The position numbers and the translations under genes were made by a program. The notes beneath the pieces were generated by a model. It was not told where the DNA came from. It ran no database searches and saw nothing but the letters and a program-made list of their open reading frames with translations. Positions 1,314 through 10,050 of a DNA stretch of 64,000 nucleotides are shown one piece after another. This DNA is from Clostridia bacterium (GTDB taxonomy: Bacteria > Bacillota > Clostridia > Christensenellales > Aristaeellaceae), in assembly GCA_017550035.1 (NCBI GenBank), contig JAFYLS010000079.1, positions 1,925-65,924 of the forward strand, given 5' to 3'. Position 1 is the stretch's first letter, and every line of letters begins with the position of its first letter.

Positions 1314-2810
1314 ATGATCACCGGAGAACTGAAAAACAGGATCGACAGCATTTGGAATATTTTTTGGACAGGCGGTCTGACGAACCCGCTGGAGGTCATC
1401 GAACAGATGACTTATTTGATGTTCATTCGGGATTTGGACGATACGGATAATATGCGTGCAAAAGAAGCTGCTATGTTGGGCCTGCCGCACAGAAGTATTT
1501 TTGAAGGTGATGTGCTGGTAGGAGAACGTTCCATTGACGGCAGTCAGCTGAAATGGTCTGTGTTCCGCGATTTTCCTGCGGGGAAGATGTACACTGTTAT
1601 GCAGGAGTGGGTGTTCCCTTTTATCAAGAACCTGCATGGCGACAAAAACAGCGCATATTCCAAATATATGGATGATGCCATTTTTAAGCTGCCCACGCCT
1701 TTGATGCTGGACAAAGTTGTGTCCGCAATGGACGAACTGTATCGCATGATGAGCGAGCAGCAGCATAGCGATGTACGCGGCGATGTGTATGAATACCTGC
1801 TGTCCAAACTGGCTCAGTCCGGTGTAAATGGTCAGTTCCGCACGCCCCGCCACATCATCCGCATGATGGTGGATCTGATGCAGCCCCGTCCTGATGATGT
1901 GATCTGCGATCCCGCCTGCGGCACATCCGGCTTTCTGGTGTCTGCCGGTGAATACCTGAAGGAAAACCATAAACAGGATATTTTCTACAACCGCCAGCGC
2001 AAGGATCATTACATGAACGAAATGTTCCACGGCTTTGATATGGATCGTACCATGCTGCGCATCGGTGCCATGAACATGATGACCCACGGCGTGGACAACC
2101 CCACCATTGAATACCGTGACAGCCTCAGCGACCAGAACCCGGACAAGGATCAATATTCCCTCATTTTGGCAAACCCGCCGTTTAAGGGCAGTCTGGATGC
2201 GGACATTGTGTCCACGGATCTTTTGAAAGTGTGCAAGACCAAGAAGACCGAACTGCTCTTCCTGGCCCTGTTCCTGCGCATGCTGCGCGTGGGCGGCCGC
2301 TGTGCCTGCATCGTGCCGGACGGCGTGCTGTTTGGCTCCTCCACGGCGCACAAGGCCATCCGTAAAACGATTATTGAGGAAAACCGGCTGGAGGCTGTTA
2401 TTTCCATGCCCAGCGGCGTGTTCAAGCCCTACGCAGGCGTGTCCACCGGTATCCTGATCTTCACCAAGACGGGTCATGGCGGCACGGACAATGTGTGGTT
2501 CTACGATATGAAGGCGGACGGCTTCTCCCTGGACGATAAGCGCACCGAAGTGAAGGAAAACGATATCCCGGATATCATTGCCCGTTTCCACAACCGTGAA
2601 GCGGAGCATGACCGTGCCCGCACGGACAAGAGCTTCTTTGTGCCCAAGGACGAGATCGTGCAGAACGACTATGACCTGTCCATCAACAAATACAAAAAAA
2701 CGGAATACAAGCCCGTGGAATACGCCCCCACAGCGCAGATTCTGGCCGAATTGAACGCACTGGAAGCCCAGATCCAGCAGGGACTGAAGGAACTGGAGGG
2801 GATGGTGTGA
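1314..2810 (+). CDS. hsdM: Type I restriction-modification system methyltransferase subunit (N6-adenine)
   Basis: 498 aa. AdoMet motif I is CDPACGTSGFLV and catalytic motif IV is LILANPPFKGS. The N-terminal HsdM-N-like helix bundle starts MITGELKNRIDSIWNIFW. Followed directly by hsdS. Confidence 0.93.
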   Translation: MITGELKNRIDSIWNIFWTGGLTNPLEVIEQMTYLMFIRDLDDTDNMRAKEAAMLGLPHRSIFEGDVLVGERSIDGSQLKWSVFRDFPAGKMYTVMQEWVFPFIKNLHGDKNSAYSKYMDDAIFKLPTPLMLDKVVSAMDELYRMMSEQQHSDVRGDVYEYLLSKLAQSGVNGQFRTPRHIIRMMVDLMQPRPDDVICDPACGTSGFLVSAGEYLKENHKQDIFYNRQRKDHYMNEMFHGFDMDRTMLRIGAMNMMTHGVDNPTIEYRDSLSDQNPDKDQYSLILANPPFKGSLDADIVSTDLLKVCKTKKTELLFLALFLRMLRVGGRCACIVPDGVLFGSSTAHKAIRKTIIEENRLEAVISMPSGVFKPYAGVSTGILIFTKTGHGGTDNVWFYDMKADGFSLDDKRTEVKENDIPDIIARFHNREAEHDRARTDKSFFVPKDEIVQNDYDLSINKYKKTEYKPVEYAPTAQILAELNALEAQIQQGLKELEGMV

Positions 2811-3931
2811 TGGCAAGGTTGGGGGAATGTATTTCGCAGGCACACGTTACCCGCTGCAGACAGAACCAATATCCTGTACTTTCGATTACGATGCAGGATG
2901 GCTTGGTTTTACAGTCTGAGAAGTTCAAAAAGAGAATTGCATCTGTTGATACATCTGATTACCTCGTTATTCCCCGTGGTAAACTGGTACAAGGTATCCA
3001 TATTGACGAAGGCAATTTTGACGTACAAAACCTTGTAGACGAAGGCATCGTTAGCCCTGCTTATAAGGTATGGGACATCAATACAAACATTGCTTGGCCT
3101 GAATACTTAGTCATGTATCTGCGTTCGCCTAAGGCAATTGATTACTTCAAAACAAAATTGATTGGCACGGTAAACAGGCGCGGCCGCATGTCACAAACAG
3201 ATTTTTTCAGCATGCAAATTCCACTGCCGTCCATTGAAGAACAAAAAGTTATTGTTGCAAACCTAAAGAAAATAGCAACACTCATTTCCCTCCGTAAGCA
3301 ACAACTGGCAAAACTGGACGAGCTGATCAAATCCCGATTTATCGAACTGTTTGGCGACCCTGTAGCAAGCAAAAACAAGAGGAAATTGTCTGAGATAGGA
3401 AGGGTATTTACAGGAAATACTCCATCAATGAAGGAACCCTCATACTATAAAAGCAATGATATTCCTTTTATCAAACCAAGTGATATGAATGAAAGTGGAG
3501 TAACATACATTGATGGAGTTGAGGCGTATGTTTCGGAAAAAGCCAGACCTGTTGCTCGCATTATTCCTCCACAAGTAGTTCTTGTGACATGTATTGGTAC
3601 AATCGGTAAAATTGGCATAACCGCAAGGGAAAGTTGTTGCAATCAGCAAATTAATTTTATTATGCCCAATGACGGAATCAATTCGGTATATCTTGCACAT
3701 TGCCTGACTTTTTTCAAAAGTACTTTGCAAAATATTGCCAATGCTCCCGTTGTTCCGATAATAAACAAAACACAGTTTTCCGAGTTGGAGATTCCTGTGT
3801 TTGAGGTGGACAAGCAACAGCGGTTTGCAGCTTTCGTCGAACAGACCGACAAATCAAAACTGGCAATCCAGCAGAGCCTTGAAAAACTGGAAACGCTGAA
3901 AAAATCACTGATGCAGAAATACTTTGGATGA
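2807..3931 (+). CDS. hsdS: Type I R-M specificity subunit with two target-recognition domains
   Basis: 374 aa. The central conserved helix is IPLPSIEEQKVIVANLKKIATLISLRKQQLAKLDELIKSRFIELFG and the C-terminal conserved helix is QQRFAAFVEQTDKSKLAIQQSLEKLETLKKSLMQKYFG. The start overlaps the hsdM stop (GTG 2807 or ATG 2810 versus TGA 2808-2810). Confidence 0.9.
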   Translation: MMARLGECISQAHVTRCRQNQYPVLSITMQDGLVLQSEKFKKRIASVDTSDYLVIPRGKLVQGIHIDEGNFDVQNLVDEGIVSPAYKVWDINTNIAWPEYLVMYLRSPKAIDYFKTKLIGTVNRRGRMSQTDFFSMQIPLPSIEEQKVIVANLKKIATLISLRKQQLAKLDELIKSRFIELFGDPVASKNKRKLSEIGRVFTGNTPSMKEPSYYKSNDIPFIKPSDMNESGVTYIDGVEAYVSEKARPVARIIPPQVVLVTCIGTIGKIGITARESCCNQQINFIMPNDGINSVYLAHCLTFFKSTLQNIANAPVVPIINKTQFSELEIPVFEVDKQQRFAAFVEQTDKSKLAIQQSLEKLETLKKSLMQKYFG

Positions 3932-4140
3932 AGGTGGAAGACATGAAAGGATATGATATAAAACCAAGCATCGAACCGCAGGACAACTATCAGAAGGCAT
4001 ATCTGAAACTCAGAGAGTTTATGGATGCGCTGAGGAATCTCACCCCTGCGGAGCGTGAGCGGCTTGCTTATGAGTTTTTTGGAACAAATGCCTTGATGGA
4101 CCTGTGTAGAAATATGGAGCAAAAAGATTCCGGGCATTGA
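3928..4140 (+). CDS. small hypothetical protein (70 aa, or 65 aa from ATG 3943), restriction-linked ORF
   Basis: ATG 3928 overlaps the hsdS stop (ATGA). The alternative ATG 3943 has an AAGGTGGA RBS. Predicted helical and charged, with no family recognised. Its stop overlaps the next ORF. Confidence 0.5.
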   Translation: MKVEDMKGYDIKPSIEPQDNYQKAYLKLREFMDALRNLTPAERERLAYEFFGTNALMDLCRNMEQKDSGH

Positions 4141-4172
4141 ACAGAGGAAAAGAAGGGTGCTGGAGGTACAAA

Positions 4173-5348
4173 ATGTATGTATTCTTGATTGGCAATGGCT
4201 ACGATTTGTATCATGGGTTTCCAACCAGTTACAAGAACTTCCTTAATGTTATTAGTTTTCTTGTGGATTCATTTGAAGACACGATGAAAACTGTTGGCGA
4301 TGTTCTAGGAAATGAAAAACTTTGTGCGACAGACCACGGGATTGCAAGAAGCTATCATCTGCATAAAGAGCATTATGATATGACTGAATTATCACACGAG
4401 CAGATAGCTGAATTGATACTTGCTGCACGTCACAACTGTTGGTTTAGGTATTTATCAGAAATGAATGGCGGCGAATCCGGTTGGATTGATTTTGAAAAAG
4501 AGATTGCACAAGCCATACGTGCATTTGATGATTTGCCAGAGGTTTTATTGAATGCACTTGCATATGATTCGCGCGCGTTTTCTCCGGAAGTATTGCAGGT
4601 CTTAGAGGCTTTTGGTATCTTTGTAGTTCAGCGTAGTCTGGTAAGTGTCGATGAACGTTATTTTTCTAGCAGGATTCCTAAAAGAAAAGCAAAAAGTTTA
4701 GATTTGAAGCGTGTTGAAGAAACAATGCATGCTTCATTGCTAGAATTGGCAAAGATGCTTGAAACGTATTTAGAATGCTTTGTTGAGCAACCGCTTAATA
4801 AGATACTTGCGGATGGGATATATCCTGTGAGTTCTGTTTTAGATGGTGCGACTAACGTTGTTACCTTCAACTATACGCATACATATGAAAAACTTCATTT
4901 AAGAAGAAATTTCGCTGATAATGTGATGCATATACACGGAAGTGTAGGACAAAAGATTGTACTTGGTGTCGACCCAAATGAGTATGATGAAGCAGGAAGT
5001 CTTGATACTACATTTCTTCGCTTTAAGAAGTATTATCAAAGAGTCTTTTATCGAACTGATACTGCCTATATATCGTGGAAAAGGCGTTTGTTACCTCAAA
5101 ATCGAGCGGTGAATGAGGTTATTGTACGTGTTTTGGGACACTCCCTTGATGTAACAGACAAAGATATCATTACTGCTGTATTCGATATGGCAACTCGGGT
5201 TGAAGTTTTCTATCATGATGAGGATGCCGTAAGTAATTACATTACTAATCTGGTAAACATATACGGCAAAACTGGATTTGACGAGTTACGCGAAAGTAAA
5301 AATGTAATGTTCACTGAATATCCGGAATTAAGGTGGGAGAAGAAATGA
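4173..5348 (+). CDS. AbiH-like abortive-infection family protein (391 aa)
   Basis: GGAGG at 4162-4166 then ATG 4173 (the track ORF starts at TTG 4137). MYVFLIGNGYDLYHGFPTSYKNF, VVTFNYTHTYEKL, VMHIHGSV..IVLGVD and VLGHSLDVTDKDI match, from memory, the GNGFDL / FNYT / IHG / GHS..D blocks of Pfam AbiH (PF14253). The stop TGA 5346-5348 overlaps the hsdR ATG. Confidence 0.6.
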   Translation: MYVFLIGNGYDLYHGFPTSYKNFLNVISFLVDSFEDTMKTVGDVLGNEKLCATDHGIARSYHLHKEHYDMTELSHEQIAELILAARHNCWFRYLSEMNGGESGWIDFEKEIAQAIRAFDDLPEVLLNALAYDSRAFSPEVLQVLEAFGIFVVQRSLVSVDERYFSSRIPKRKAKSLDLKRVEETMHASLLELAKMLETYLECFVEQPLNKILADGIYPVSSVLDGATNVVTFNYTHTYEKLHLRRNFADNVMHIHGSVGQKIVLGVDPNEYDEAGSLDTTFLRFKKYYQRVFYRTDTAYISWKRRLLPQNRAVNEVIVRVLGHSLDVTDKDIITAVFDMATRVEVFYHDEDAVSNYITNLVNIYGKTGFDELRESKNVMFTEYPELRWEKK

Positions 5349-8300
5349 TGTCTAACTTTACCTTTCTTCAGTCCGATGCGCGGTTTGCGTCCTTTGCGGA
5401 TGCGGCGGTGTCGGCGGAGAAGATATACCGCATCGATGCGGCGGCCTGTGTGCTGAATTGCAGACGGGCGATGGAGTTTGCCGTCAAATGGATGTATTCC
5501 GTGGACGGCGGGCTTGAAATGCCCTACGATGACGGTTTGAAGGGATTGATGGACGGAGAAGATTTCCGGAACATCGTGGGCATCGATGTGTGGCGCAGGA
5601 TGGACGTAGTGCGCAAGCTGGGCAACCGTGCCGCCCATGACCATGGACAGATTAACAAAGAACGGGCGGCCCTGTGTCTGGAAAACCTGTTTGTGTTTCT
5701 GGATTTTGTGGCCTATTGCTACGGCGAAAACTACGCAGAGCATCATTTTGATGCTGCTTTGCTGGAGGCCGCAGAAGCGCCTGCTGCGTATGTGGTATTG
5801 CCTGATCCTGACACGGAAAAGAAACTGCAGCAGCTGATGCAGGAAAATGCCTCTCTGCGGGATGAACTGACCGCCCGCCGCGAAGCCCAGCAGCAGACCT
5901 ATGTGCCCAAGCCCCTCGAACTGAGCGAATACAAGACACGCAAAATCTATATCGATTCCATGCTGCTGGACGCCGGTTGGGTGGAAGGTAAAGACTGGAT
6001 CAATGAAGTGGAATTGCCCGGCATGCCCAATAAGAGTGAAGTGGGCTATGCGGATTATGTGCTGTATGATGATATGCAGCGTCCTCTGGCAGTCATTGAA
6101 GCCAAACGCACATGTGTAGATGTAAGCAAGGCGCGTCAGCAGGCACAATTGTATGCTGATCTGCTGGAACAAAAGTATCACCGCCGCCCGGTCATCTTTT
6201 TGACCAATGGTTTTGAAACCCGTATTGTGGACGGGCAGTATCCGGAGCGCAAAGTTGCGTGTATCTATTCCAAGCGGGATTTGGAAAAACTGTTCAACCT
6301 GCGTCGTATGCGTACCAGTTTGAAACATGTAACGGTCAATTCTGGTATTGCAGGGCGTTATTATCAGGAAGGGGCTATCAAAGCTGTTTGCGATGCCTTC
6401 GATAGAAAGAACAGGCGCAAGGCGTTGCTGGTCATGGCGACGGGCAGTGGTAAGACGCGTACAGTAATTGCCTTGTGTGATGTGCTGCTGCAGCATGGCT
6501 GGGTGAAGAATATCCTGTTCCTTGCGGATCGCAACAGTCTGGTTACGCAGGCCAAGCGCAGTTTTGTGAACCTGATGCCGGATCTTTCTGTGACCAACCT
6601 GTGCGAAGAAAAAGATAATTTCACTGCGCATTGTGTGTTTTCTACTTATCAGACCATGATGAACTGCATTGACAGCATCAAGGATGAAAAGGGAAAGCTT
6701 TTTACCTGTGGGCATTTTGATCTGGTGATCTGCGATGAAGCACACCGCTCCATCTATAATAAATACAAGGATATCTTTACCTATTTCGATGCACCGCTGG
6801 TGGGTCTGACGGCTACCCCAAAAGATGAAATTGACAAAAATACCTATGAAATCTTTGAACTGGAAAGCGGCGTACCGACCTACGGGTATGAACTGAGCCA
6901 GGCTGTCAAGGACGGCTATCTGGTTGATTATATGTCAGTGGAATCTACGCTGAAGTTCCTGCAGGAAGGCATCGCGTACGATGAACTGACTGACGCAGAA
7001 AAGCAGGAATACGAAGATTATTTCATCGACGAACATGATGATTTGCCTGACCATATTAACTCCTCTGCGCTCAATGACTGGGTTTTTAATGAGGATACCA
7101 TCCGCCAGGTGCTGCATATCCTGATGGAAAAGGGATTGCGCATTGAATACGGCGAGAAACTGGGCAAGACAATCATTTTCGCCAAGAATCATCAGCATGC
7201 GGAAAAGATATTTGAGATTTTTAATCGGGAATATCCGCACCTGAACGGTTATGCCAAAGTGATCGACAACTACCTGAACTACGCACAGAACGCCATTGAT
7301 GAGTTTTCTGTTGCGAATAAGCTCCCGCAGATTGCAATTTCTGTGGATATGCTGGACACCGGTATTGACGTGCCGGAAGTGCTGAACCTTGTGTTTTTTA
7401 AGAAAGTTCGCAGCAAAGCCAAGTTCTGGCAGATGATTGGTCGCGGAACACGATTGTGCGAAGGCCTGCTGGATGGTGAGGATAAGAAATTATTCTACAT
7501 CTTCGATTTCTGTGGGAATTTCGATTTTTTCCGTAATGGCAAGCCCTTCCAAGTGCCTAACACGATTCCGCTTCAAGGGGCCATTTTCTTCCTGAAAGCC
7601 AAGCTTGCATATAAATTGCAGGATATGGATTATCAGACGGAAGAATTAATTCCATTCCGCAAGAATCTGATTCAGGATATGATTGAAAAAGTCAGAGAAC
7701 TGAATAAAGAGAATTTTGCTGTGCATCAGCATCTGAAGTTTGTGGAACTGTATTCGGTGGAGAAAAATTATCAGGCACTGACATACGAGGATACGTTGCT
7801 GATCGGTTCGGAATTGGCACCTTTGATCCAGCCTGATGGGGACCATGCGCAGGCAATGCGCTTTGATGCACTGATGTATGGAATTGAATTAGCATACTTG
7901 ATTGGGAAAAAATATACCCGGGCAAGAAATGATTTGATTCGCAAGGTCAATGGTCTGGCTAAGATTGCCGCCGATTTTCCTGAAATCATGGCTCAGAAGG
8001 AACTGATACATGATGTGCTGCACACGGCCTATGTGGAAAATGCCGGTATTAACGAATTTGAACACATTCGTGAACAGCTGCGAGATTTGATGAAGCTGAT
8101 TCCACGAGAAAAACTTTCGTACACCACGCATTTTGATGACGTACTGCTTTCTGTAGAGTGGAACGAATCAGAACTGGAAAATGATGATTTGAAGAACTAC
8201 AAAGCAAAAGCTGAGTTTTACGTCCGTCAGCATCAGGATCATCTGGTGATTGCTAAACTGAAAAAGAATGTACCTTTGACAACAACGGATGTGAACACAT

Positions 8301-8660: not shown

Positions 8661-8706
8661 AACCGGGAGCGGAGAACTCAGTTCTTTCGCATCCCGGTTT
8701 GTTTTT
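8661..8706. terminator. bidirectional hairpin terminator between convergent hsdR and the xis-like gene
   Basis: aaccggga (8661-8668) pairs with tcccggtt (8692-8699), followed by tgttttt. It overlaps the last codons of the minus-strand ORF. Confidence 0.55.
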
Positions 8707-8887
8707 CGAGCCAATTTTTTATTTCTTCCTGTATGATATAGAATTTTCTCCCGATACGTACGGAAGGAAAATCTTTGCGTTTTACCAGATCATATACTTT
8801 GTGAATGCCGATAGGTGTATTCAAAGTGCGATTGATTTCTTCATAAAACTGGTGCGGGGAAATGAGAGTGACATTATTATTTTGCAT
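8678..8887 (-). CDS. excisionase-family (MerR-like) helix-turn-helix DNA-binding protein
   Basis: 69 aa. ...FYEEINRTLNTPIGIHKVYDLVKRKDFPSVRIGRKFYIIQEEIKNWLEKQ is the typical short Xis/AlpA-type HTH_17 pattern (...fP..riG.r..i....l..Wl). Confidence 0.7.
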   Translation of the reverse strand: MQNNNVTLISPHQFYEEINRTLNTPIGIHKVYDLVKRKDFPSVRIGRKFYIIQEEIKNWLEKQTGMRKN

Positions 8888-9022: not shown

Positions 9023-9709
9023 TCAGAAAGGGAGCTCATTGGGAATGCTTGCAACCCAGATCCTGAATTCTTCGGGACTAATACCATCGAAGAGTTCTGG
9101 GAAGGTAGATGAATTGAGTTCCTCTTCGTTCATGAAATCTTGGGTGGTTAATTTGTCAATTGTGTATCCCGGAAATGCTTTCATCCAAATGTGGTATTCT
9201 CTTTCCGTCATTTGTTCTACTGTTTCAATGAAGCTTATATGAACTTTGCTGAGACAAGGTCTTTCTTCTCCATCTGCATATAGCAGATGATATTTTTGCC
9301 CAAGATCAGCGATCGTTTTTTCTAGACCCCTAATGTGCAGATGAGAAAAATGACAGCGGTCTTTATTATTGCGATGAAAGGGCAACGGCTCTGATAAAGC
9401 GGCGAAGAGCCTGATTTGTTTCCAATTGATAATGATTTTTGACTTGGAATCATTTTTAAGATATCTGATCAGTGTGCGCTGCTCTAGAATCTTTCTGTGC
9501 TCGCTGATTTTATTGGGACGAATGCCTGTGTGTTTGCTGATTTCCAGCAGGGATGGACGAAAACCTGTTGCCTGACTGGCATAATATAAAAAAAGTTTTG
9601 TTGGTACGCCTGATAGTTTTACATTCGTGCAGGCATCAGCTGCCATGGATAAATAAAAATAGGGGCGTTGAATGTGGATGATTTTTGGTGGGGAATGTAT
9701 TGGGCTCAT
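9023..9709 (-). CDS. hypothetical MGE-associated protein with a putative (winged) HTH
   Basis: AAGGAG 5 nt upstream of ATG 9709 (the track ORF starts at 9742). The segment LLEISKHTGIRPNKISEHRKILEQRTLI looks like an HTH. No family recognised. Confidence 0.5.
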   Translation of the reverse strand: MSPIHSPPKIIHIQRPYFYLSMAADACTNVKLSGVPTKLFLYYASQATGFRPSLLEISKHTGIRPNKISEHRKILEQRTLIRYLKNDSKSKIIINWKQIRLFAALSEPLPFHRNNKDRCHFSHLHIRGLEKTIADLGQKYHLLYADGEERPCLSKVHISFIETVEQMTEREYHIWMKAFPGYTIDKLTTQDFMNEEELNSSTFPELFDGISPEEFRIWVASIPNELPF

Positions 9710-10050
9710 AATTTCTCCTTCGGTTTTCCAAAAATAAAACACAACCTCCCGATAAAGGAAGTTGTGCAGCCATTTGGTGTATGTTCATTATATCAGAAAT
9801 GGTTTGTATATGCAAATCAATAGCATTTTTGTGCCGTGAATATGATGCAGAAGCAGATGCAATTTCCCCATTGGGGAAATTATGGGATGAATTTGGAGGA
9901 GAATAGTTTTTGTGTGATTATCATTGAAAACACAGCTGACATTTTTTAAAAAGTGTTTCGGGAGGCTTTTTTGATGACAAGATAAAATGAAGAATGATTA
10001 TTTGCAGCACATTATGAAAAAAGAAGAATGCACCTTGGTGTGCTGAAACT

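Follow-up and report, generated by a model that had tools for sequence, protein, structure and literature searches.

How is a defence gene that lies inside a Type I restriction-modification (R-M) operon related to the enzyme that surrounds it? This question is raised by a locus in the 64,000-nucleotide (nt) stretch of a Clostridia genome analysed here (the window), in which a small open reading frame (ORF) and a gene of the abortive-infection family AbiH lie between hsdS and hsdR. The initial annotation of the stretch had taken the two ORFs for a module that is nested in the R-M operon in the manner of PrrC of Escherichia coli and might be held in check by the R-M complex. The nesting in the same slot as prrC is indeed present, and the order hsdS-AbiH-hsdR recurs in nine other species-level genomes. 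The comparative analysis described here, however, favours another answer: the hsdS-hsdR interval is probably a cargo slot, and AbiH an autonomous, co-transcribed second layer of defence, which would not be controlled by the R-M enzyme. The locus comprises five genes on the same strand between positions 1314 and 8656, which follow each other in the order hsdM, hsdS, small ORF, abiH and hsdR with gaps of -4 to +32 nt:

1314-2810, + strand: hsdM, methyltransferase subunit of the Type I enzyme, 498 amino acids (aa); Pfam HsdM_N and N6_Mtase, E=1e-65; PADLOC MTase_I, E=2e-183
2810-3931, + strand: hsdS, specificity subunit, 373 aa; Pfam Methylase_S in two stretches, E=2e-25; PADLOC Specificity_I
3943-4140, + strand: orf65, predicted small three-helix protein, 65 aa; the orf70 of the initial annotation with its start moved from 3928
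4173-5348, + strand: abiH, single-gene abortive-infection effector, 391 aa, with a predicted sirtuin-like (SIR2-type) fold; Pfam PF14253
5345-8656, + strand: hsdR, restriction and translocase subunit, 1103 aa; Pfam domains and PADLOC REase_I, E=3e-150

The AbiH protein and its operon

The 391-aa product had been assigned to the AbiH family by its motifs, and this assignment is confirmed by searches with hidden Markov models (HMMs). The protein matches the Pfam family AbiH (PF14253) with 117.1 bits (cut-off 30.9, E=2e-33), residues 3-341 being aligned to positions 1-250 of the 260-position model, and the AbiH model of PADLOC with E=3.3e-12; no domain other than AbiH was found in it by Pfam and PADLOC. 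Among 4,788 candidates scored, 416 homologues were obtained at E<=0.001, and PF14253 is present in 120 of the 120 homologues listed. The four blocks noted initially, GNG(F/Y)DL, FNYT, HIHG and GHSL..D, are all present and fall into invariant columns of an alignment of 35 homologues; the invariant residues G7, N8, G9 and D11, N233, H253, H255 and G256, and G322-D326 are all kept in the AbiH of the window. The AlphaFold2 model (predicted local distance difference test, pLDDT, 88.6; predicted template modelling score, pTM, 0.90) presents each block directly after or at the end of a strand, namely 2-6 for GNG, 228-231 for FNYT, 251-253 for HIHG and 317-321 for GHSLD. We take these blocks, whose order along the protein is that expected for a sirtuin, to be equivalent to the sirtuin motifs (the catalytic Asn, the His, and the glycine-rich and G-x-S-L loops), an assignment made from general knowledge of sirtuins and not from a superposition. 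No relative of AbiH was retrieved from the PDB by sequence profile; the top PDB matches of the model in Foldseek are the SIR2 protein of SIR2-HerA/Nezha, followed by DSR2 and yeast Hst2. In the literature, AbiH has been assigned to the immune sirtuins (SIRim) on the basis of HHpred, AlphaFold and phylogenetic analyses, with depletion of nicotinamide adenine dinucleotide (NAD+) suggested as its action, and it has been reported to protect as a single gene in Vibrio and Streptococcus thermophilus, with phage inhibitors known in Vibrio. Taking model, motifs and published assignments together, we infer that the chemistry of AbiH is probably NAD-directed and of the sirtuin type.

Three of the gene junctions described initially were found on reading the sequence: the stop codon of hsdM (TGA, 2808-2810) shares one base with the start codon of hsdS (ATG, 2810; a GTG at 2807 is an alternative start), the TGA of the small ORF at 4138-4140 is followed by GGAGG at 4162-4166 and the ATG of abiH at 4173, and the ATGA at 5345-5348 forms a 4-nt overlap of the 391-aa abiH ORF onto hsdR. 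A further ATGA, at 3928-3931, is present as well; however, it is probably not a working stop/start junction, as the small ORF starts at 3943. The unit is bounded as follows:

1055-1080, + strand: intrinsic terminator at the left edge of the R-M unit, closing the upstream gene; 11-bp GC-rich stem, then a T-run
1240-1268, + strand: candidate sigma-70-type promoter, TTGCTT-17 nt-TATAAT, read from the sequence; the -35 box matches at 3/6 positions, below the threshold of the scan
8661-8707, + strand: intrinsic terminator after hsdR, at the right edge; stem 8661-8699, then UUUGUUUUU

The left terminator has a folding energy of -19.7 kcal/mol (z=-4.96), and none of 200 shuffled sequences folds as well; the stem at 8661-8699 reaches -23.1 kcal/mol (z=-4.79). 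No internal terminator was detected in the unit, as had been claimed: the sole hairpin flagged there by the scan, at 4054-4072 within orf65, was rejected because shuffled sequences fold equally well (z=-0.07). Promoter-like sites occur in the region at chance level (16 found against 15.6 expected), so that the scan speaks neither for nor against the initial claim of a single promoter with none inside the unit. Comparable promoter boxes are present at a similar distance from the hsdM start in two other loci of the comparison (L027 and L110), and the sequences upstream of hsdM cannot be aligned across loci. Taken together, the five genes look like one operon, as proposed initially; the anatomy, with tight packing between two strong terminators, supports this well.

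HsdR carries the Pfam domains DUF4145 (residues 23-114), HSDR_N, ResIII, Helicase_C and EcoEI_R_C. In NCBIfam it scores best against PRK11448, a generic model of Type I endonucleases (E=9e-88), followed by the EcoAI family (E=1e-72); neither match reaches the cut-off. Judging by these domains, the R-M system is a complete Type I system that is EcoAI/EcoEI-like (Type IB-like), a subtype that is approximate, as the EcoAI match lies under the equivalog cut-off. DUF4145 corresponds to 5411-5686 of the window and is likewise present in HsdR of those orf65-containing loci whose N-terminus was scanned (L103-109 and L111-115); in the literature of 2012, this domain was listed among those that are associated with abortive infection and fused to subunits of Type I restriction enzymes.

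The same R-M family is found around the slot in the sister loci, HsdM being 55-82% and HsdR 35-79% identical, and the two target-recognition domains of HsdS are variable between them. At the nucleotide level, similarity to the sister loci is confined to hsdM, to a central (3281-3360) and a C-terminal (3815-3936) region of hsdS, and to hsdR from 5344 onward. No nucleotide similarity to sister R-M loci was found over 3937-5343 (the match reaches 3953 in L101). The GC content, which is about 54% in hsdM and in the 5' part of hsdR, is lower over hsdS, orf65 and abiH, at about 40%. The left boundary of the interval is a feature in its own right:

3815-3936, + strand: conserved 3' end of hsdS, likely the left homology arm; 78-87% nucleotide identity to L027, L035, L091, L098 and L101

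The 5' end of hsdR from 5344 is likely to be the right homology arm. In this R-M family, the slot holds AbiH, Dodola, an EEP-family protein with a 182-aa protein, DUF4062, Schlafen-AlbA_2/HATPase_c_4, or orf65 alone. Moreover, several loci carry what look like scars of exchange: a 41-codon 3' fragment of hsdS lies directly before AbiH in L050, the last eight codons of the orf65 variant in L091 are the hsdS tail at the nucleotide level, a 27-codon 5' fragment of hsdR separates two orf65 copies in L089/L090, and an hsdR 3' remnant lies beside a disrupted AbiH in L029. Because of these scars and the boundaries of similarity, the cargo appears to be exchanged in cassettes by homologous recombination.

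Distribution of AbiH and of the small ORF

The occurrence of AbiH was followed in 80 loci, one genome per species, whose AbiH proteins are 26-39% identical to that of the window. The arrangement hsdM-hsdS-...-AbiH-hsdR with the same R-M family is present in nine of them (L016, L018, L023, L027, L030, L035, L039, L049 and L050), or in 8 of 50 when only loci flanked by 3 kb or more of sequence on either side are considered. Any Type I neighbour is found in about 14 of the 80 loci (13 within 3 kb), including the following:

L045: AbiH before an HsdR of the EcoR124 type
L026: AbiH after hsdM-hsdS
L058: AbiH after hsdR-hsdM-hsdS
L029, 10001-11426: AbiH split into ORFs of 85 aa and 313 aa, followed by a 50-aa C-terminal remnant of hsdR; a decaying copy of the embedded arrangement

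In five loci (L011, L032, L033, L037 and L038), a full MmeI-type Type IIG enzyme is encoded immediately before AbiH in the same orientation, with a gap of 5-290 nt; in a further one AbiH follows a IIG-like methyltransferase, and in L041 and L065 it adjoins Type III-like Mod genes. Altogether, an R-M gene lies within 3 kb of AbiH in 22 of the 80 loci, in 21 of them on the same strand. AbiH of the window's clade appears to associate with R-M enzymes generally, not with Type I alone. The closest relative of the window's AbiH (44% identity) is solitary and lies in a defence island beside AbiEii and DUF2971, and the embedded copies lie scattered among solitary ones in a neighbour-joining tree. No conserved partner gene of AbiH was found across 78 loci. 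Between hsdS and AbiH, the embedded loci carry either nothing (L016, L030, L035 and L049) or unrelated ORFs, several of which resemble membrane proteins. Small hydrophobic ORFs of this membrane-protein-like kind are found repeatedly, either in the interval from hsdM to hsdS or in that from hsdS to the cargo (L016 393-812; L018 7982-8446 and 9564-9968; L027 3492-4121; L096 2901-3314); the last of these has a weak SLATT-type match in PADLOC (E=7e-5).

The small ORF had been annotated as orf70, starting at 3928. Its start is most likely the ATG at 3943, since all homologues begin at residue 6, a ribosome-binding site (AAGGTGG) precedes this ATG at 3931-3937, and the gene is called with 65 aa in public annotations; orf65 then begins 11 nt past the hsdS stop codon and is separated from abiH by a 32-nt spacer. 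A word-indexed search with the single orf70 sequence returned only the sequence itself. The ORF is nevertheless not an orphan: when 1.84 billion representatives were scanned exhaustively with HMMER, five small relatives (64-73 aa) came to light, and a profile search extended these to at least 58 clusters, with lengths of 58-82 aa and in most cases 63-66 aa. The statement that the ORF has no recognisable family consequently holds for the curated libraries but not overall, as it belongs to an uncurated family of at least 58 clusters. Pairwise ratios of nonsynonymous to synonymous substitution rates (dN/dS), taken from pairs with unsaturated synonymous sites, are 0.06-0.37, and orf65 is on this ground considered to be protein-coding and under purifying selection. 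The AlphaFold2 model consists of three helices (pLDDT 74). No significant match was found in Pfam, PHROGs, NCBIfam, PADLOC, by sequence profile in the PDB, or by Foldseek against the PDB and BFVD, and 21 weak SbsC_C matches were dismissed as helical noise.

Many members of the orf65 family end in MQ(Q/K)YFG, which is the invariant C-terminal tail of HsdS, and the last ~24 nt of the orf65 homologue resemble the hsdS 3' end at L091 603-647 and L108 7148-7192. A descent or mimicry of the whole protein from HsdS helices, for which the motifs E(L/F)FG and MQxYFG had been considered, was rejected, as an hhalign comparison with 12 HsdS proteins gave a probability of 0.6% (E=0.095). The HsdS-like tail may be either a recombination junction or mimicry. 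An accessory gene associated with AbiH has been reported under the name DS-37; judged by its distribution, orf65 is unlikely to be DS-37.

Members of the orf65 family occur in 12 distinct architectures; 11 of these are part of a Type I locus of the kind described here or adjoin one, and the gene usually comes directly after hsdS:

Window: hsdS-orf65-abiH-hsdR
L099/L100: hsdS-orf65-hsdR, no cargo; HsdR 72-79% identical to that of the window
L108/L109: hsdS-orf63-77 aa-hsdR
L103-107: hsdS-orf64-EEP-family 265 aa-182 aa-hsdR; Rep3/MobC element found in many samples
L110: hsdS-orf64-Schlafen-AlbA_2/HATPase_c_4 467 aa-hsdR
L111-115: hsdS shufflon-orf63-196 aa-DUF4062-hsdR
L096/L097: hsdS-137 aa-orf66-DolA-DolB (Dodola)-hsdR
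L101/L102: hsdS-DUF4062-orf65-...-hsdR
L091 and L098: short contigs, hsdS tail then orf65
L089/L090: two orf65 copies on either side of a 27-codon hsdR 5' fragment
L092-95: the sole context outside R-M, HTH_17-HTH_17-orf64-Schlafen-AlbA_2 on a mobilisable element

A metagenome scan with the alignment of a subfamily of orf65 returned a single locus, L110. By their genomic surroundings, orf65 proteins belong to these R-M loci, and what follows orf65 is interchangeable and not specific for AbiH. No earlier description of the orf65 family, or of its constant position at the start of the slot, was found.

Some of these loci deserve a closer description. The tandem orf65 copies at L089 92-683 (also present in L090), with the hsdR 5' fragment between them, are 60% identical to each other. 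In L111 (3003-6860) and L112 (2814-6671), several hsdS genes or fragments surround a tyrosine recombinase and form a phase-variable shufflon upstream of the slot. A complete Dodola system (DolA, E=2e-50; DolB, E=2e-102) lies between orf66 and hsdR at L096 3521-5439. Schlafen-AlbA_2 directly follows an orf65 homologue twice, once outside R-M (L092 6001-7021) and once in the slot (L110 3255-4899), and is the only type of cargo that was found with orf65 outside R-M.

Guard, partner or independent cargo

According to the reading that we consider probable, the slot of the window would carry two unrelated items, orf65 and abiH. AbiH would probably share a transcript with the R-M genes, initiated at a promoter ahead of hsdM, and be translated just before hsdR; like its solitary relatives, it would sense a phage cue on its own and, once activated, consume NAD+ or ADP-ribosylate a target, whereupon the infected cell would stop. 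AbiH would in this way provide a second layer against phages that escape restriction, and nesting would bring co-expression and co-transfer with the R-M genes rather than control by the R-M enzyme. We infer the independence of AbiH from the Hsd complex from the comparisons above, and several points weigh against this reading. The Foldseek matches of the AbiH model are weak (E>=0.013, TM score about 0.26-0.31) and interleaved with methyltransferases, and the literature searched contains no report of NADase activity for any AbiH. The arms for cassette exchange at the hsdS 3' and hsdR 5' ends are putative, as they are deduced from scars and similarity boundaries. R-M genes confined to the ring of 3-10 kb, which holds twice the DNA, add one more locus to the 22, in a comparison of near and far rings that is biased, as some query proteins came from adjacent genes, so that other R-M families are under-sampled in the far ring; the adjacency of AbiH to R-M genes is tighter than the usual clustering in defence islands and could reflect a functional tie. 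Furthermore, AbiH is the last or nearly the last cargo gene in nine of nine embedded loci, 0-346 nt from hsdR, and this closeness, which amounts to a 4-nt overlap in the window, would also suit stoichiometric co-production with HsdR.

The alternative suggested by prrC is that of a guard: AbiH would be kept latent by contact with HsdMSR, be freed by a phage anti-restriction protein and kill by NAD+ depletion. The slot, the operon and the 4-nt overlap onto hsdR are those expected of a guard, the order hsdS-AbiH-hsdR is shared by nine other species-level genomes, and the AbiH clade shows a strong enrichment of R-M neighbours on the same strand; PrrC and PARIS are known examples of R-M guardians, and the idea matches a published hypothesis on the coupling of immunity and suicide that names Sir2/AbiH and Type I R-M. 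However, PrrC is almost exclusively embedded in Type I loci according to published work, whereas this is the case for 9 of 80 AbiH loci, with a few more beside other Type I genes; the nearest relative of the window's AbiH is solitary and the embedded copies are polyphyletic, forming no clade. A docking surface shared by all partners is also unlikely, as the AbiH clade shares an operon with a single-chain MmeI-type enzyme in five genomes and with a Type III-like Mod gene in two. Moreover, the slot accepts unrelated cargos, and AbiH homologues defend as single genes in hosts that lack a cognate R-M partner. The comparative data lean against a dedicated coupling of the PrrC kind, and we regard the guard as unlikely. 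The small obligate partner postulated by the initial annotation, by which orf65 would be the antitoxin, sensor or chaperone of AbiH and the two would move and work as a pair, did not withstand the comparison. The two genes are adjacent across the 32-nt spacer in the same low-GC insert without similarity to sister loci, and small ORFs of other kinds precede AbiH in some embedded loci, as in L039, where the stop codon of a 44-aa ORF abuts the AbiH ATG. Against this, orf65 is present in none of the 80 other AbiH loci, as determined with a profile HMM built from 50 family members and in agreement with tblastn, and no other AbiH occurs in the contexts of orf65 relatives that were examined (11 architectures); in addition, four embedded loci have no ORF between hsdS and AbiH, and AbiH acts as a one-gene system in published experiments. 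An obligate pair is highly improbable.

A further possibility is that orf65 is an accessory of this Type I family, acting either as a regulator of what follows hsdS in the operon, hsdR included, or as an adaptor between the Hsd enzyme and whichever effector is in the slot. In that case, orf65 could delay restriction after transfer to a new host, and AbiH would be one of several interchangeable outputs. Consistent with such a role, orf65 stays in its place after hsdS in 11 architectures whatever the cargo, its sequence is under purifying selection, and its loci lie on mobile elements (Rep3/MobC plasmid-like contigs, contigs with relaxase genes, and integrase/excisionase islands); RptR is a known example of a small regulator of a Type I R-M defence island, and a subset of the family ends in the HsdS tail motif MQxYFG. 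On the other hand, orf65 is absent from all nine AbiH-embedded sister loci and is hence needed by neither the R-M enzyme nor AbiH, one of its contexts (L092-95) lies outside R-M, the model has no recognisable DNA-binding or other fold match, and the profile comparison with HsdS was not significant. We consider an accessory role rather unlikely. That orf65 is a generic guard adaptor or exerts post-transfer control over the slot and hsdR, the pair orf65-AbiH being one output of a modular guard platform, seems quite improbable. Independent cargo in a shared slot remains the preferred reading of the locus.

The surrounding island and its relation to known systems

Near-identical copies of the locus are present in several public assemblies, with about 99.9% nucleotide identity over 13-14 kb and 100% identity of AbiH. 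Two genes flank the R-M unit:

859-1056, + strand: 3' remnant of a tyrosine-recombinase (integrase) gene; an intact Phage_integrase gene of 410 aa is present in L001 and L002
8678-8887, - strand: excisionase-type HTH_17 gene, 69 aa; Pfam HTH_17 in sister loci; NCBIfam excisionase domain, E=3.5e-5

The window matches L001 and L002 from position 859 on only, and the integrase of these loci ends at the equivalent of 1056, so that the last ~200 nt of the gene are left in the window. Positions 1-858 are unrelated to L001 5829-6686, and the integrase frame (frame 1) is full of stop codons there; the break may stem from a rearrangement at the level of strains or from a join made in assembly. Because an integrase remnant and an excisionase-type gene flank it, the locus is regarded as part of an integrative island. 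Beside the excisionase-like gene lies a 239-aa ORF (9023-9742, - strand), which is conserved in sister assemblies as a call of 228 aa and has no family match in Pfam or NCBIfam.

Known AbiH proteins from Lactococcus lactis, and those tested in S. thermophilus and Vibrio, share with the protein of the window the PF14253 domain, a single polypeptide of about 350-400 aa and the same invariant motifs, and are mostly encoded by lone genes on mobile elements or in defence islands. The AbiH described here differs in its modest PADLOC match, in belonging to a subclade from gut and rumen Clostridia and in being embedded in a Type I locus, whereas the tested genes were assayed alone. The PrrC/EcoprrI system of E. 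coli is similar in that a co-oriented and apparently co-transcribed candidate suicide gene lies between hsdS and hsdR. In contrast to PrrC, however, AbiH of the window has neither an ABC-ATPase nor a HEPN anticodon-nuclease domain and is predicted to have a sirtuin-like chemistry; furthermore, the R-M system of PrrC is of Type IC, whereas that of the window is EcoAI/EcoEI-like, and the linkage of AbiH with R-M genes, found in about 1 in 6 to 1 in 4 loci, is facultative, while that of PrrC is nearly exclusive.

Varied cargo in the same slot and orientation is also known from DarTG2 (enteropathogenic E. coli, RptR study) and TgvAB (Vibrio cholerae VPI-2), which are tested examples, and from rlo genes (Campylobacter), and Payne and colleagues have compiled a systematic catalogue of defence genes embedded in Type I loci ('guilt-by-embedding'). 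Where tested, embedded cargo was independent of HsdR, and in the RptR study the hsdS-hsdR site was proposed as a potential recombination hotspot. The locus of the window differs from these embedded loci by its AbiH cargo, its Clostridia R-M family and the orf65 gene that often heads the slot, which is not described there. The link between the Sir2-superfamily protein AbiH and Type I R-M, together with the analogy to PrrC, was put forward by Makarova, Anantharaman, Aravind and Koonin in 2012 in their immunity-suicide coupling hypothesis, as a general genomic observation that does not include this locus family, the slot anatomy or orf65; the window is a case of this link. The initial statement that an AbiH in a Type I operon had not been characterised is accordingly correct for experiments but not for the genomic link.

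The window provides a clear and bounded example of how the hsdS-hsdR junction of Type I operons gathers second-line defence genes. What had appeared to be an orphan partner of AbiH is a conserved, unannotated component of R-M loci. If embedded AbiH were gated by R-M, it would be the first sirtuin-type guardian of restriction, an outcome that the evidence makes less likely. A single R-M family of gut and rumen Clostridia that carries many alternative cargos in the same place offers a natural test bed in which effectors that are merely co-inherited with restriction may be told apart from those that are guarded by it.

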